DNA of 64,000 nucleotides from a virus. Taxonomy: Duplodnaviria > Caudoviricetes. A program made the position numbers and the translations under genes. Under the pieces are notes generated by a model. That model was not told where the DNA came from. It ran no database searches and worked only from the letters and a program-made list of their open reading frames with translations. This document shows positions 18,387 to 52,900 of this stretch, one piece after another. The stretch's first letter is position 1. Each line of letters begins with the position of its first letter. The stretch lies in the IMG/VR virus record IMGVR_UViG_3300020112_000604, positions 32,001 through 96,000 of that record. The stretch is one strand, 5' to 3'.

Positions 18387-19013
18387 ATGAAAAGATACTT
18401 TTTAAACGATAAACAATTCATGTTCGTTTCTGGTCATACATTCTACGTATCAACCGAAAACGGAAATGTTGAAGTTGACGGATTCATAATTGACGAAAAT
18501 GAAGATGACAACTTCATTACGTTATGCAACGGAGAATGGCTGGCATGTCCAAAGTCAATCCCGTTAGACTGGCTGCAGGACGTGTTTATCTTTAAGCATC
18601 TTGATGATGCCTTCGAGATAAGCACAAACTTGCGAATGACGGTAGCGACGGATTATAGGTGTAACCCAACCGTATCAGCTGACCGTCTTAAGAAAATAAT
18701 CAAGGACCGCAGATATTTAAAGGAATTAGGTATCTTGCATCTAATCAATTATTACGATGACGCGGATGTACTGGTTACTGAAGTTGGACACGGTATAAAG
18801 ATTCACCATACCAGACATAACAGGCGTTTTCCGAAAGCACCGTCATCAAAGTATCCGGACGATAATATCCGTTCGGTATTCATTTATAAGGATGACGTTT
18901 ACATCTGCCCTTCAGACAGAAATGCCAATGGCATTCTCAGACTGGATGAAGACGACACGTTGTATTTAGCAAGGTTTGGTGAACTCGAAGAGGAAATCTT
19001 CAAGTTCATTTAA
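18387..19013 (+). CDS. Hypothetical protein, 208 aa
   Basis: RBS AAAGGAG. Confidence 0.8.
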   Translation: MKRYFLNDKQFMFVSGHTFYVSTENGNVEVDGFIIDENEDDNFITLCNGEWLACPKSIPLDWLQDVFIFKHLDDAFEISTNLRMTVATDYRCNPTVSADRLKKIIKDRRYLKELGILHLINYYDDADVLVTEVGHGIKIHHTRHNRRFPKAPSSKYPDDNIRSVFIYKDDVYICPSDRNANGILRLDEDDTLYLARFGELEEEIFKFI

Positions 19014-19042
19014 TCTACAAATTCTAATAAAACAACTAAACT

Positions 19043-19088
19043 AAAAGAGCTACGGGCTCTTTTGAGAAGGCTATGCCTTCTTTTTTTT
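19043..19088 (+). terminator. Tandem hairpin terminator
   Basis: AAAAGAGC/GCTCTTTT, then AGAAGGC/GCCTTCT followed by a T tract. Confidence 0.85.
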
Positions 19089-19176
19089 ATTTCAATGTAA
19101 CAATATTTGACATTGTGTATACTTTTGTTAAGAACAAGGGGTCTTTGTAGCAAAAGTAGTTAACTACGAAGTACCT

Positions 19177-19188
19177 AACATTTTCGTA
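19177..19188 (+). promoter_or_regulatory. Late-type promoter AACA-TTTTCG-TA leading into a non-coding element
   Basis: Exact motif match; the next ORF is 290 nt away and has its own copy. Confidence 0.6.
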
Positions 19189-19447
19189 ATTTATACGAAA
19201 ATAAGACTAAGATTAGTCTAAGTGTGACTGTGCCTTAGCTAAAGTCACACTAAGCTAACTGGTCTTAAATATTCTCTGTATAAAACGAAAATATATCCTA
19301 ATAACCAAATACTTTGACTCTACTTGTTGACCAAGTAGAGTCTTATTTATTGTAGACAGGATCTGAATTAGAAGTATGAGTTTCATAGTATAGGACTACG
19401 CTAAGGCTACGTCCTATACTAAGGGACAGACCTTAAAGCCCTAGGGC
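19188..19447 (+). ncRNA. Candidate structured non-coding RNA with complementary (kissing) loops
   Basis: Long imperfect hairpin 19190-19284, 11-bp hairpins at 19316-19342 and 19386-19421; loop GCCTTAGC (19232-19239) is the exact reverse complement of loop GCTAAGGC (19400-19407). Confidence 0.55.
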
Positions 19448-19449
19448 AA

Positions 19450-19461
19450 AACATTTTAGTA
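19450..19461 (+). promoter_or_regulatory. Late-type promoter AACA-TTTTAG-TA
   Basis: Immediately before RBS AAAGGAGG of the 19480 gene. Confidence 0.7.
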
Positions 19462-19479
19462 ATAAAGGAGGAATGTGCT

Positions 19480-20697
19480 ATGACAGAACAGTATCGTTAC
19501 TCTGCTGTAATGACATTCATGAATAACAGAAGAGAAGCTCAAGAAATATCTATGGATGTAATCCAATTCATAGTTATAGACAAAGATTATGAAAACAATA
19601 TTATGCCAGTTATAACTACATCTATTTTATTAGATTCCAAACTTAGAGACAAAATGATTCTTGAAATGGATGATTCTATAGTATCTCTACAGATATACAA
19701 ATTCAATAAAGACGAAGATGACAGAATAGGACAGACTATTCTGAATGATATCTTTGTTTATATGATACCAGGTGACATATCTCATTCACAGGATATGGAC
19801 TATAAAGATGAAATCGATGAAGAGAACCCACCAAGAATACCTACTACAGTTTATCTGATAAAGAGAGACTCAATAAACAACAATCGTCAGGTAATCAATT
19901 GTGTCAATCGATTTACTTACGACAAGAATATTAAGAAACAGATATCAATGACAGACATGGTAATGAGAACGTCAGCATATCTCAGACCATTATTGCTAGA
20001 ACCAATAACCAACAATAAATCATTTGATGAGATTGTAATACCTCCATTATCTTCATTATCAGATTATGTCAACTATCTCAATGATAATATCTGTTCACTA
20101 TATCCAACCGGATATAGATTCTTCATGGACTTTGATACAAACTACATCATATCTAAGTCCGGTAAAAAGGTTGAGCACAAAGACCAGAATTATCACTCAG
20201 TAATCATAGATATTGGTGAAAAGAGCAATCTTAATTATGCTGTAGATGGAAACCTGTATAACAGTGAAAATCGTTTCTATCACGTTCCAGTATCAATTGC
20301 TATGGCAAAGTTCCAGCGTAACATTACAGCGAAACACCTGGTTACTCAAGTGGCTTGTATCGATAGTTCAGGAACAGCTTTTTCAGAAGACGTATCAGAC
20401 ACGTCTGCTAATATTAAAGAAAAGCTATCTATTATGCAGTCAACAACTTCTAACTCTGGCATCATAGACAATGTCAAGAATGACGTCGTAAATGGCTCGC
20501 TTGTAATAGACATTGTTAAACCAAATTTGGACGCCAGCATATTTACAATCAATAAAGAATACATAATAAACAATACCGAAGAGTATAAAGACTATGACGG
20601 CAGATATCTGATATGCTGTGCTAAACAGTTCTTTATCAAAGAAGAAGATGGATTCGCTATGAATTCCCTGATGAGATTCAAAAAAATATCCCAGTAG
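19480..20697 (+). CDS. Probable virion structural protein, baseplate-hub-like, 405 aa
   Basis: Size, late motif and layout (IDKDYENNIMPV ... GYRFFMD ... DGRYLI) resemble hub (gp27-type) proteins; inference. Confidence 0.45.
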   Translation: MTEQYRYSAVMTFMNNRREAQEISMDVIQFIVIDKDYENNIMPVITTSILLDSKLRDKMILEMDDSIVSLQIYKFNKDEDDRIGQTILNDIFVYMIPGDISHSQDMDYKDEIDEENPPRIPTTVYLIKRDSINNNRQVINCVNRFTYDKNIKKQISMTDMVMRTSAYLRPLLLEPITNNKSFDEIVIPPLSSLSDYVNYLNDNICSLYPTGYRFFMDFDTNYIISKSGKKVEHKDQNYHSVIIDIGEKSNLNYAVDGNLYNSENRFYHVPVSIAMAKFQRNITAKHLVTQVACIDSSGTAFSEDVSDTSANIKEKLSIMQSTTSNSGIIDNVKNDVVNGSLVIDIVKPNLDASIFTINKEYIINNTEEYKDYDGRYLICCAKQFFIKEEDGFAMNSLMRFKKISQ

Positions 20698-40070: not shown

Positions 40071-40090
40071 TTTTAGATTACCTCCTGTAT

Positions 40091-40453
40091 TTAGAACTGT
40101 ATTAATCCACCCTTAGCGGACCAGCATTTTACCGTAAAGACAAAACTTAGAAGCGATGAATCGAGTTTCATGTCCGAAGCTTTATATAATGCCGATATTA
40201 TCAGATTCCCTATTGCCAGTATAGAATAGTCAGCTGAACTGACATCGATTAATTCGTCCGGAGACATAATTGTTAAGCATTTAGTACTGGTTTCATAAAA
40301 CACAGTCATCGGTACTTTAAATGTATTCATGACACCGTTGTATATTTCATCAGATAACTTCTTGACGAATTCTGGGTTTTCAAGAAGTCTACGTACCTGC
40401 ATTCCTGTATCGTATATTTTGTCACTTATCGTCTGTTTGTCTTTATTAGTCAT
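40091..40453 (-). CDS. Hypothetical protein, 120 aa
   Basis: Start moved to ATG 40453 (RBS AAAGGAG). Confidence 0.7.
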   Translation of the reverse strand: MTNKDKQTISDKIYDTGMQVRRLLENPEFVKKLSDEIYNGVMNTFKVPMTVFYETSTKCLTIMSPDELIDVSSADYSILAIGNLIISALYKASDMKLDSSLLSFVFTVKCWSAKGGLIQF

Positions 40454-40472
40454 ATAAAAATTTCTCCTTTCA

Positions 40473-49900: not shown

Positions 49901-52900
49901 AGATACATCGAATACTAATGGGAACTTCTGTGGTGTTATCTTAGAATACAGCTTAAACTTTCTGAGTTTAGCTACATGTGTATCTAAGAATCTCTGCTGT
50001 TCTCTGTCATATACTCCGTCTGCCGCATCAAGTGCTGCATCAAGGTTATGCTGACGATTAGCAGATGAATCTTCGAATGTGTTCTGTATGTTAGAGATAT
50101 CAATAGCCTGATTCATATTAACACCATTGCCGTTATTGTAAACCGCATTGTCATTAATATTACGGAAGTTACCGATACCGTTCATGAACTTAGTCACATT
50201 CTTAAGAGCGGCAGCGAAGTCTGCAAATGCATTTGTTGACACTTCTACAGCTTCAGCATTTCTTGCGAATATGTCTGCCTGTAAATCAGCTGAACGTGAT
50301 TCAGCTTCACCCTGAGAACCGTATTTTATGGATGCAGCATTCTTAGCATTGATTTCAGCTTTAAGAGAATCCATGATAGCTCTCTTCTGTTTAGCTGATT
50401 TCTTATTGAATTTCTTGATTCCTAATTTAGAAGCATATTCAGCAACCTTTTCGTCAGTAGCCTTATATGTATCTCTCTTAGCAAGAATTTCATCACGCTG
50501 TTTGAGTAACTGCTGAACCTCTGCTATGAAAGCATCGGCTTCTTCTTTACTCATACGCTGTCCGTCCACGGTCTTGGTATTTCTGATAAGGTCAAATGCC
50601 TTTTCGTATTTACCCTGCTCAATAGCTCTGTCAATAGAACGTGCAGCATTACCGAAACGTGTTCTAAACTTTTCGGAAATCTTCTTACCAATAGCTCTAG
50701 AGTTATTGCCAATTTCCTTGTTAAGTCCACGTTCTCCGTCAATATTGAAAGCAATAGAGTTTTTGATTAATTCAAGGTCTTCAACAGAAGCTGTTTCTGA
50801 ATAAGCTGCGAGGTTCTTATCATATTCAGCATATTTATCTCCAACGAGGAATTTGCTCTTGTGTCTCTGACGGAATTCGTTTCTTTCAGCTGCAGTCATA
50901 TATGAACCAGCTCTGCCGTTTTTGATACCGGCAGTCTTAGCCATATTACCGAGTGTTCCGAATAAGCCCTTACCGATTAATTTAAATGGTAATCTTATTA
51001 TGCTTGTAGCTTTCTTAAGAATACCTGTAGTGAGTTTCTTAATAGGGTCAGCTACATAATCTCTTACGAGATTAGCTAACGGTACAGAAATGTGTTCTTT
51101 GAATGTGTCTGCAATCATGTTTGGAATGAATGTAAACATATTCTTCAGTTCAGTTGTAATTGGAGCCATTGCATCCTTGATTGGATCTAAGAAATCCTCA
51201 TGGAGGTTTTCCTTGATATCTTCAAAGAGATCTAAACCGAAGTTCTTGAGAGGTGTTACGAGATTGTCTTTTAACGCTCCAACAACACCGCCATCACGTG
51301 TTCCATCTTCATTCTTTTCGCCGAGTAATGCAGACTTAAACTTTTCTGTTGTTGTAAGGAATCCTGCACCGCCGCCGAGGAGAGCACCACCGAGTAAACC
51401 GAATGGTCCCATTAAAGCTCCAGCTGCAGCACCAATAGCTACATTAGGGAAAGCTGCCTTGATAGCCTTACGGTTATCTTCTGATAACAGCATTCCATCA
51501 CCGAATAATCTGTCCTGTACGAACTTAGTATTCTTGAGGAATCCTAAACCTGCACCTACGATAGCACCACCAACTGGTCCAAGTGGAGTTAAGAGACCGG
51601 CTACTGAACCGAGTAATCCTCCTGTCTTCATGCTTGGTAAAGCCTGCTGTACAGATTCCTTAATTAATCCATCATTAGCATGTATTGGGTTGCCATTTTC
51701 GTCATAGTCAATGATACTTCCGAATAATGCCTGATTGAGTACCTTATTAGACTGGATAAGCTGTGAGCCCATTCCGATGCCTGCACCAAGTAATGGGTTT
51801 CCAACGAGTAATCCAGCGATGCCGCCGATTGCACCCTTAGCGAGTCCCTGATATCCGATGCCCTTAGCGATTTCTCCAACACGTGTGCCAGAGAGACTAT
51901 CATTTGCTCTAGCATTAGTTAACAGTCTACGTTTGAAGTTCTTTTCGGCTGCAGCCTGTTTTGCGATTGTTGCATCGTCCGCTGGATTTATAACTGTAGA
52001 TTTTCCAGGAATAGAATATATTCCCATCTTAGGTACAGTATAAACTGAACCACCAGAAGTGATAATCTTTTCGTTAGGTGACATAATAGAGAGCATGCTC
52101 TTTGAAGACTTGTTCTTGCCACCTCTAGCGAACATAGAAGCGTTTGTGATATCGTTATAACGAGTTCTTGTTTCAGAATCAATGTCCCCAAACTCATTAT
52201 ATGCGTAGTTGCCGTCGGCGATTCTTTCAAATCTGGCTTTTAACTCAGGGTCCTGTACAGATGCAGCAAATTGTTTCATAAGCTCTTTATTTCGTGAATA
52301 CTGAGCTAAGAACTGAGCTGTCTTTGGATCAAGGTTTGCACCATATTCAGCAGAGAATAAATCGTAAGCATACTTGTCACGTTCTTCTCTAATCTTATCA
52401 CGGTCAGCTCTTGAACGATACTGTCCGTTGGCATCACGATATACAGGTGAAGACTCATCATCAGTAGCAGTATTCATCATTGAATCAAACGAATTCTCTC
52501 CATATAAAGAATACTGTGAGTTTAATCTGTCGTATCTGTCTGAACGTTCAGAGTCTAAACGTCCTACAACTGAGCTGTCGATTGTGAATCTCTTAAGCAT
52601 TGCCTCTACGTCAGAGTTAAACTTAGCGTTAGCACGGTTTACTCTTGACTGAGCTCTAGCCTTGAGACTCTTAGCCTGTGGAATATAAGTACCACGCATT
52701 TCTTCAGCTTTACCTGTTAACTCATCACGTTCAGCAATGAGCTGTGCAAGTTCTTCTGGAGAATAGTTTGCATGTGGGTCAGTTATCTTGTCGTGTAGGG
52801 CAACAGCCTGAAGATTGTACTGTTCGTACTGCTGCTGGAACTTGTCAAGATCAGCGATAGCATTAGTGAGTTCATTCTGGAATGCTTCACGCTGTTTTGT

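Follow-up and report, generated by a model that had tools for sequence, protein, structure and literature searches.

A repeated promoter–terminator cassette with a candidate late small RNA in an uncultured AR9/PBS1-like jumbo phage

Early termination of transcripts is known in giant phages that carry their own RNA polymerases, but none of the small RNAs that arise in this way has a known function. In 201phi2-1 and phiKZ, promoters are found that are closely trailed by a terminator; eleven small RNAs arise in this way in 201phi2-1, one of them keeping its position across giant phages, and the major capsid gene is preceded by tandem promoters that have terminators between them (PMC11512511). Here we describe an element of comparable anatomy in a stretch of 64,000 nucleotides of viral DNA (the window), which corresponds to bases 32001–96000 of the 183,720-bp IMG/VR record IMGVR_UViG_3300020112_000604 (G000), judged to be about 75% complete. 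The element, which we call the cassette, contains a promoter motif, a folded 5′ domain, a terminator and a further hairpin. Positions are those of the window unless preceded by G000 or by the label of a related contig (L002 and so on).

The cassette resembles the arrangement in 201phi2-1 and phiKZ in having a putative phage-polymerase promoter with a terminator less than 250 nt further on (about 163 nt here, as predicted), ahead of a gene with a separate promoter, and in keeping its position by a homologous gene across related giant phages. The likeness is one of anatomy, and the hosts and clades are different (Pseudomonas phiKZ-like phages as against AR9-like phages). Unlike the 201phi2-1 and phiKZ RNAs, the cassette has about four paralogues, an AACA-N6-TA promoter, a long imperfect hairpin (the rod), and an extra hairpin past the terminator.

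A second comparison is with the PeSL (promoter-early stem-loop) cassettes of the T4-type phages RB49 and phi1, which mediate modular shuffling (PMC2839356). These too are small, repeated, dispersed intergenic units of a promoter and a stem-loop terminator, associated with mosaic boundaries and with the gain or loss of DNA beside them. They are short, however, are read by the host polymerase from sigma70-like early promoters, and lack a long structured RNA, whereas the present cassette has what appears to be a late phage-polymerase promoter, is about 340 bp long, and consists mostly of conserved folded RNA with compensatory changes.

The transcription signals can be compared with those of AR9, in which 94 late start sites carry AACA-N6-TA/G, the last base being the start, and RNA-seq shows strong termination at predicted intrinsic terminators, which stop the phage polymerases (PMC5312081). 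The locus shares with AR9 the AACA-N6-TA motif with its last A as the predicted start, short late leaders, and terminators made of a hairpin and a U-run. The text of the AR9 study does not mention non-coding RNA (PMC5312081), and AR9, unlike the phage described here, has no cassette upstream of gp217, the distant homologue of the gene that follows the cassette.

A first-pass annotation of the window had proposed that 19188–19447 encodes a single late non-coding RNA of about 260 nt, lying in the largest gap free of open reading frames (ORFs). The gap, 19014–19479, is indeed the largest that is truly ORF-free in the window; 40071–40472 was considered as a rival and rejected, because it is actually coding. 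The following features make up the cassette and its junction with the downstream gene.

19095..19434, (+) strand: full repeated cassette, copy c1, from self-BLAST of the genome and alignment of the copies
19120..19158, (+) strand: upstream hairpin TACTTTTG ... CAAAAGTA, conserved in c1, c2 and c4, and present in L033 with a different interior
19159..19167, (+) strand: upstream box GTTAACTAC, 9–12 nt 5′ of AACA; TTTCCAAC in relatives
19177..19188, (+) strand: promoter motif P1, AACA-TTTTCG-TA, unchanged in all copies; predicted +1 at A19188
19190..19285, (+) strand: the rod, a long imperfect 5′ hairpin, from the minimum-energy fold and the consensus fold
19221..19251, (+) strand: top of hairpin 1, with a 9-bp stem AGTGTGACT/AGTCACACT, a small internal loop, an apical stem of 2–4 bp and a CUUA tetraloop (19234–19237)
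19286..19315, (+) strand: linker, predicted from folds and sequences to be single-stranded, with the pyrimidine patch AUCCU
19316..19351, (+) strand: predicted intrinsic terminator from a terminator scan, with an 11-bp stem (5 GC, 19316–19342) and a 5-nt loop, then TTATTTATT
19386..19421, (+) strand: hairpin 3, with an 11-bp lower stem, a UAC/UAC internal loop, a GC/GC apical stem and a UAAG tetraloop (19402–19405)
19450..19461, (+) strand: promoter motif P2, AACA-TTTTAG-TA, AACATTTTAGTA, followed by a Shine-Dalgarno (SD) sequence at 19466–19472 and the ATG at 19480

The element is a real and conserved structured-RNA cassette, present in about four copies and without a catalogue entry. As the product of this multi-copy regulatory cassette we favour a late small RNA, about 160 nt long, that results when transcription ends early. 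This reading falls somewhat short of probable, and the pairing of hairpin tops that goes with it is speculative.

The cassette is a dispersed repeat. An initial whole-record search matched G000 106271–106536 (+, 72% identity) and 165921–166126 (-), and self-BLAST widens the common unit to 19095–19434. It thus begins, at 19095, about 95 nt 5′ of the start that the first-pass annotation had given. The other two copies in the record, defined by self-BLAST and alignment, lie outside the window.

G000 106178–106536, (+) strand: copy c2
G000 ~165921–166162, (-) strand: copy c3

The three copies occupy the second to fourth largest intergenic gaps of the contig. Each is co-oriented with the gene downstream of it, and the genes that the copies precede are unrelated. 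A close relative, represented by four contigs from metagenome Ga0255343, has orthologues of all three copies and a fourth paralogue, c4. The fourth copy is also present in DNA contigs of close strains, and c4 is therefore probably situated in the missing quarter of the genome (c2, c3 and c4 are L002, L003 and L010 respectively). A covariance model of the rod, run on the contig, matched only the three known copies. An exact pattern for the top of hairpin 3 gave no match in IMG/VR, and a degenerate version of it gave eight chance matches, all in unrelated coding regions (L013–L020), which were rejected. No ORF is conserved between the copies and none has a ribosome-binding site, in agreement with the earlier view that the element is non-coding. 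Its RNA is also uncatalogued, as had been suspected: the whole window gave no Rfam match at gathering thresholds, and an E-value search of 19000–19500 returned three chance-level matches to unrelated families only.

The cassette is found in related phages, upstream of the same gene. Homologues of the 405-aa protein encoded downstream of c1 form a graded series, from 72% down to 30% identity. In the five relatives L027, L029, L031, L032 and L033 (72, 69, 55, 53 and 51% identity) the full architecture stands upstream of the homologue, in the order P1, folded 5′ domain, terminator, hairpin 3, P2, SD, ATG. L034 (47% identity) has two tandem units of P1, RNA and terminator, with neither hairpin 3 nor P2, and L036 (43% identity) has a single short unit followed by only an off-consensus AACC motif. 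The cassette is absent upstream of homologues at 36% identity or below, and from all eight upstream regions inspected from distant IMG/VR relatives. An orthologue of c3 (L038) and orthologues of c4 (L057–L061) were also recovered.

Comparison with the phage of Ga0255343 gives a measure of constraint. Only 3 differences are found across 19081–19479 (P1 and rod, 0/116; linker and terminator, 2/59; spacer and hairpin 3, 1/84; P2, 0/44), against 14% in the upstream gene and 3.7% in the downstream gene. This near-zero change in the cassette beside diverged flanking genes indicates that the cassette is under purifying selection.

The sequence is predicted to fold strongly. The folding energy of the 260 nt is -78 kcal/mol; dinucleotide shuffles give -52 ± 4.7 (z -5.5), and 0 of 200 are as good. 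The minimum-energy fold contains all three helices that had been named in a nested hairpin starting at 19188. That the element is structured is further borne out by compensatory changes in the rod (consensus fold of 38 pairs, 5 with compensatory change), the stem of hairpin 1 (9 pairs, 4 with compensatory change, in 10 cassettes) and hairpin 3 (11 pairs, 7 with compensatory change, in 12 cassettes). Stems differ between the paralogues by such changes: the inner 9-bp stem of hairpin 1 is AGTGTGACT/AGTCACACT in c1, AGTATGACT/AGTCATACT in c2 and AGTACGACT/AGTCGTACT in c4, and the apical stem above it is GC in c1, AUGC/GCAU in c2, ACAC/GUGU in c3 and GUGC/GCAC in c4. In closer relatives the rod stretch can also fold as two or three shorter hairpins. 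A CUCC/UCCU-like pyrimidine patch, counted by eye, is present in the linkers of about 11 of 15 cassettes (L057 has CUCCUCUCCU and L036 has UCUCCUUUCU, for instance). It is complementary to AAGGAGG, which the phage uses as a strong ribosome-binding site.

Two 11-bp hairpins had been described after the rod, at 19316–19342 and 19386–19421. Both are present, but the first is terminator-like. A hairpin is found at the terminator position in every cassette, with stem sequences that differ, and 12 of the 13 cassette terminators examined have a T-rich tail, which in c4 is only moderate. T-tailed terminators with unlike stems are found in c2, c3, L027, L029, L031–L034, L036 and L038, with the weaker tail in c4, and a compensatory change from C-G to U-A distinguishes the terminator stem of c2 from that of c4. 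Since the terminator lies between the two hairpin tips, the primary RNA from P1 should be about 163 nt long, from 19188 to about 19350, and should lack the last hairpin; its 3′ end is predicted at about 19345–19351. The single RNA of about 260 nt envisaged in the first-pass annotation is not supported, the terminator being interposed between the tips in 12 of the 13 cases.

The start of the RNA is predicted from P1, which has AACA at 19177–19180, N6, and TA at 19187–19188 (the complete site being AACATTTTCGTAAT). The motif and its +1 at 19188 are as originally described, and judged by the motif it is a plausible late promoter of the AR9 type. Motifs of the AACA-N6-TA class occur within 80 nt upstream of 25 of 160 ORFs, where about 4 are expected, mostly 17–40 nt before the ATG, and the genes concerned include those for the portal, the CHAP protein and the 4170-aa protein. 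Their extended consensus is AACAT-N4-(A/G)TAA, which fits both 19177–19188 and 19450–19461. The bare motif is not enriched genome-wide (134 occurrences, against about 180 in shuffles). P2, at 19450–19461, upholds the earlier statement that the downstream gene has its own promoter; it precedes the 405-aa gene and is conserved in L027, L029, L031, L032 and L033.

The promoter of the cassette has additional elements. The upstream box (GTTAACTAC, GTTTACAAC or TTTCCAAC) is at the same position in c2–c4, L027, L029, L033, L034 and L038. Among the promoters examined it is seen solely at those of cassettes, and a pattern search of the genome finds it at c1 and c3 only; it was not seen at the gene promoters that carry the AACA-N6-TA motif. 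Cassette promoters may thus form a subclass of their own, or the box may be where a factor binds. The hairpin at 19120–19158 is situated 5′ of the predicted start site and has no promoter of its own.

Other promoter-like motifs were also noted. An early-type TATATTAT promoter follows directly after hairpin 3 of c3, and L038 likewise has an early-type promoter next. An early-like consensus, approximately TTTCAnTT(A/G)TATATTAT(N6)G, is found at more than 20 intergenic sites, for example G000 14000, 18474, 20640 and 114151 (+) and 174568, 164817, 161394 and 156505 (-), and resembles the AR9 early motif AAATATATATTAT-N6-G. In relatives and in c4, AACT-N6-TA (possibly AACC-N6-TA) stands before genes where this phage uses AACA (L041–L050 at about 1460–1480, L010 at about 7690, L059 at about 255), and lineages seem to differ in the fourth base of this late motif.

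Hairpin 3 is the part of the cassette that the predicted small RNA does not include. A variable spacer separates it from the terminator, and in c1-type cassettes its end is about 29–36 nt from the AACA of the next promoter. The 20 nt of its top (GACTACGCTAAGGCTACGTC) are identical in all four paralogues. In the window copy, the tops of hairpin 1 and hairpin 3 are reverse complements. The two loops, GCCTTAGC (19232–19239) and GCTAAGGC (19400–19407), are exact reverse complements over 8 nt, as had been reported, but they are not open 8-nt loops: each is a tetraloop (CUUA and UAAG respectively) that sits on two G-C pairs, with a small internal loop below them.

The complementarity of the tips is more than expected by chance. 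The 8-nt match is exact in c1 and c2, becomes 10 bp with one G.U pair in c3, and includes a bulge in c4. The energies of the apical duplex are -15.0, -15.1, -13.6 and -11.3 kcal/mol in c1, c2, c3 and c4 respectively (shuffle p <=0.007 each), and the c1 duplex is better than all of 2000 shuffles (p<0.0005). The duplex is significant in c1–c4, L029, L031 and L038. In L029 both tops have other sequences, GAACGUUAGUGUA and UACACUUACGUUC, which match at 12 of 13 positions. The c1-type and c3-type cassettes of this phage differ in the pair formed by the first loop base with its partner, which is G:C in the former and C:G in the latter. The tops of L031 differ again, CCAAAGUGUA matching UACGCUUGGG at 9 of 10 positions with one wobble. 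Across seven lineages, cognate tips beat permuted partners with p = 0.04 (0.013 against derangements). The complementarity is thus kept in the four paralogues and, with other sequences, in L029 and L031, but covariation of loop with loop is not the rule: uncompensated changes occur in c4 and in the c2 copy of the close relative, and at least four other cassettes have no tip match. We regard the match of the tips as genuine, and selection has probably kept it in part of the clade, though it does not define the family; pairing of tip with tip is possible.

A further comparison is with the kissing-loop antisense control RNAs of plasmids, CopA/CopT and RNAI/RNAII, in which each partner is read from one of the two strands of a single stretch of DNA and complementarity is automatic. 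The cassette is similar in that a short, stable, terminator-ended RNA would have a hairpin top complementary to a hairpin in a longer transcript; the loops would make the first contact, and the pairing could then spread to the stems. Unlike CopA/CopT and RNAI/RNAII, both partners are here on the same strand, in tandem, so that complementarity depends on selection, and it is kept only in part.

We suggest the following sequence of events. Late in infection the non-virion RNA polymerase of the phage would start at A19188, as its motif indicates, and would copy the folded 5′ domain and the short linker, after which most transcripts would stop at the 19316–19351 terminator. To judge from the conserved anatomy, the product would be a separate non-coding RNA, about 160 nt long, encoded immediately before a gene that is served by another promoter. 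Hairpin 3 is outside the small RNA, between the terminator and the next promoter, and would be transcribed only in molecules that read through. The likeliest use of the complementarity, though a speculative one, is that hairpin 3 would be bound by the small RNA, which would be abundant, or by the 5′ domain of the very molecule that carries it. Transcripts that read through would in this way be marked or processed, and expression of the downstream gene would be tuned. A further step, which we regard as unlikely, is that the cassettes are self-addressed RNA switches, each recognising its own read-through transcript or DNA and controlling a different downstream operon, one of them with a tubulin gene.

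Several observations weigh against the small RNA and against the pairing of its tip. The minus strand folds equally well (z -6.4), so that folding energy does not tell the strand, and the wobble pairs of the rod are equally uninformative (about 7 G.U pairs against 6 A.C mismatches); the orientation rests on the promoter, the T-run and the direction of the genes. In the orthologue L057, the hairpin at the terminator position has no T-run. The sole RNA run, available as assembled contigs, has a low-depth 206-nt contig of a c4-like copy. It matches 19120–19235, includes sequence 5′ of the predicted start, and does not cover the rest. It could be DNA carry-over, and it says nothing on start, end, strand or level. 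In the tips, a close relative has changed UAAG to UUAG, giving an uncompensated U.U mismatch; another loop, changed to UAGG, gives a G.U pair, and loop 1 of c4 has an extra base that forms a 1-nt bulge. The tip match is not significant in L033 (p 0.23) and is marginal in L027 and L032, and the c4 orthologues L057/L058 (loop CUAUUA or UAUU) and L059–L061 (GCAG-CAGG-CUGC) have no tip match. Finally, tetraloops on covarying stems have poor kissing geometry unless the apical stems open.

The alternative that survives best, though it is doubtful, is a leader or attenuator acting in cis, in which P1 serves the downstream gene through a conditional stop that is relieved by a phage antitermination factor or by the fold of the leader, so as to time or raise expression, and the short RNA is a by-product. 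The position of the cassette before the same gene is conserved across relatives, and for 201phi2-1 and phiKZ the terminators that follow the promoters before the capsid gene have been proposed to set timing by antitermination (PMC11512511). In L034 (second cassette) and L036 there is no recognisable separate promoter between the terminator and the gene, and here the cassette looks like a 5′ leader or attenuator, which is a further point against a free-standing small RNA; c2 and c4 are then followed by only off-consensus AACC/AACT motifs. Against this, c1 and five orthologues have a consensus late promoter with a 19-nt leader directly before the gene, the early-type promoter after c3 and L038 is of another temporal class than P1, and the same cassette is found before unrelated genes. 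Nor is any antiterminator pairing conserved. The alternative pairings noticed earlier, 19199–19208 with 19339–19348 and TTAGCT with AGCTAA, are exact in c1 but are not kept in the paralogues. The first of them, unique to c1, is antiterminator-like in joining the 5′ region to the 3′ arm and U-run of the terminator.

It is quite unlikely that the cassette is simply a mobile, PeSL-like unit, that is, a portable transcription boundary and recombination site between modules whose RNA has no function of its own. The PeSL precedent (PMC2839356) fits the approximately four dispersed copies per genome and the polymorphism of presence and absence: L039, from the same sample as the L027 phage, has a 51%-identity homologue of the gene downstream of c3 without a cassette. 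There is also a step in divergence: against L011, it falls from 14% upstream to 3.7% downstream exactly across the c1 cassette (G000 50448–52184, window 18448–20184), which suggests a recombination boundary. The assemblies of relatives also break at the cassette, L031, L032 and L057–L061 starting inside or at it, which shows that the repeat breaks short-read assemblies of the clade. A boundary, however, needs only a promoter and a terminator, and this leaves the 100-nt constrained rod, the invariant top of hairpin 3 and the co-varying tips unexplained. No recombinant junctions or circles were found in the contigs of the sequencing runs, although contigs cannot show rare forms.

It is very unlikely that the element acts as DNA, either with the tops as inverted repeats around an asymmetric CTTA core, at which a recombinase would flip a terminator segment of about 170 bp, or as single-stranded hairpins at an origin or packaging site. 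The tops do form inverted repeats of about 20 bp (GAC..GT.GCCTTAGC..TA..GTC), which change together in L029, and the structure is equally stable on either strand. For an invertible switch, the repeats are present, but no serine or tyrosine recombinase (resolvase or integrase) is found in the 183 kb, from a contig that is about 75% complete; all cassettes examined, from at least 8 independent assemblies, have a single internal orientation, there are no strand-changing joints in the contigs of four sequencing runs, and the repeats lie from about 150 to 210 bp apart. The covariation of the stems fits a folded strand and not a protein-binding palindrome. As to an origin, which had been suggested as an alternative to be checked by GC skew, there is a weak local maximum of cumulative GC skew near c1 but no skew feature at c2 or c3, which gives it no support. 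As a DNA motif, GCCTTAGC was rejected: it occurs 23 times in the genome and seems over-represented, but every occurrence outside the cassettes is in-frame GCT-AAG-GC (Ala-Lys-Ala) coding; CTAAGGG was similarly rejected as a general intergenic motif, having three intergenic matches only, one of them actually coding.

The original proposal, of a late RNA of about 260 nt over all three hairpins that closes on itself or multimerises in the manner of phi29 pRNA, possibly for packaging, is extremely unlikely: although the two tips are complementary, as are two loops of pRNA (exactly so over 8 nt in c1 and c2, over 10 bp with one G.U in c3, and with other sequences in L029 and L031), and terminators leak, so that some 260-nt RNA may exist, the conserved terminator separates tips that are 4-nt tetraloops on covarying stems, whereas pRNA has both loops in one compact domain of one transcript; the complementarity is lost in several lineages, with uncompensated changes; and there is no homology to pRNA (no match to RF00044, the Rfam family) nor any phi29-like context, pRNA being the product of a single-copy gene that lies at one end of the genome in small terminal-protein phages and binding the prohead connector, unlike the approximately four dispersed copies found here in a jumbo phage of myovirus type with a T4-like portal and a family-B polymerase.

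The small RNA made by early termination remains our preferred product of the cassette. As to the phage, which we take to be an uncultured AR9/PBS1-like jumbo phage, the window codes for a DNA polymerase of family B, a portal like that of T4, a CHAP lysin and a 4170-aa protein. The portal is distantly related (23–29% identity) to those of AR9, PBS1, BpSp, Listeria LPJP1 and Staphylococcus S6-like phages, which are uracil-DNA jumbo phages. An RNA polymerase beta′-like domain (PF00623, E 2e-5) is found outside the window in a 538-aa frame, at G000 115661–116056 (+), and is consistent with a phage-encoded multisubunit polymerase. No PF00562 match for a beta subunit was found in the contig; genes of this kind diverge strongly, and the contig lacks about a quarter of the genome. 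Near-identical DNA comes mostly from animal gut and faecal metagenomes, and no DNA similarity to deposited phages was found.

The neighbouring genes are less informative, Pfam and PHROGs scans of them being essentially empty.

18387–19013: upstream gene, ended by two terminator-like hairpins
19043..19090, (+) strand: the two terminator-like hairpins that close the upstream gene, from a terminator scan, outside the repeated cassette
19480..20697, (+) strand: downstream gene, 405 aa, a distant homologue of AR9 gp217

The hairpins at 19043..19090 are not common to the other copies and are highly diverged in the close relative. A structure model of the 405-aa protein has a mean pLDDT of 51, which is too poor to use. 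A single-sequence search of IMG/VR with this protein found no relatives, and an alignment search found distant relatives only (<=36% identity). The operon downstream of c4 contains a conserved 241-aa protein (which, like the 405-aa protein, has many homologues), small ORFs and a tubulin-family gene (PF00091; L057 1175–2463, L059–L061 at about 1755–2525), presumably a PhuZ-like phage tubulin.

The host is uncultured, and the practical value of the cassette is therefore moderate for now. It is nevertheless a rich case for study, with about four paralogues, graded orthologues, covarying stems and a testable prediction of tip pairing. If the pairing is not real, the cassette would still make a good candidate Rfam family, and would mark recombination boundaries within the clade. 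If it is real, it would represent a regulatory logic in which selection must maintain complementarity within the same strand, and the self-addressed switch, if true, would be a sense-sense, cis-encoded form of kissing regulation in a phage that uses its own polymerases, of a kind not described before.

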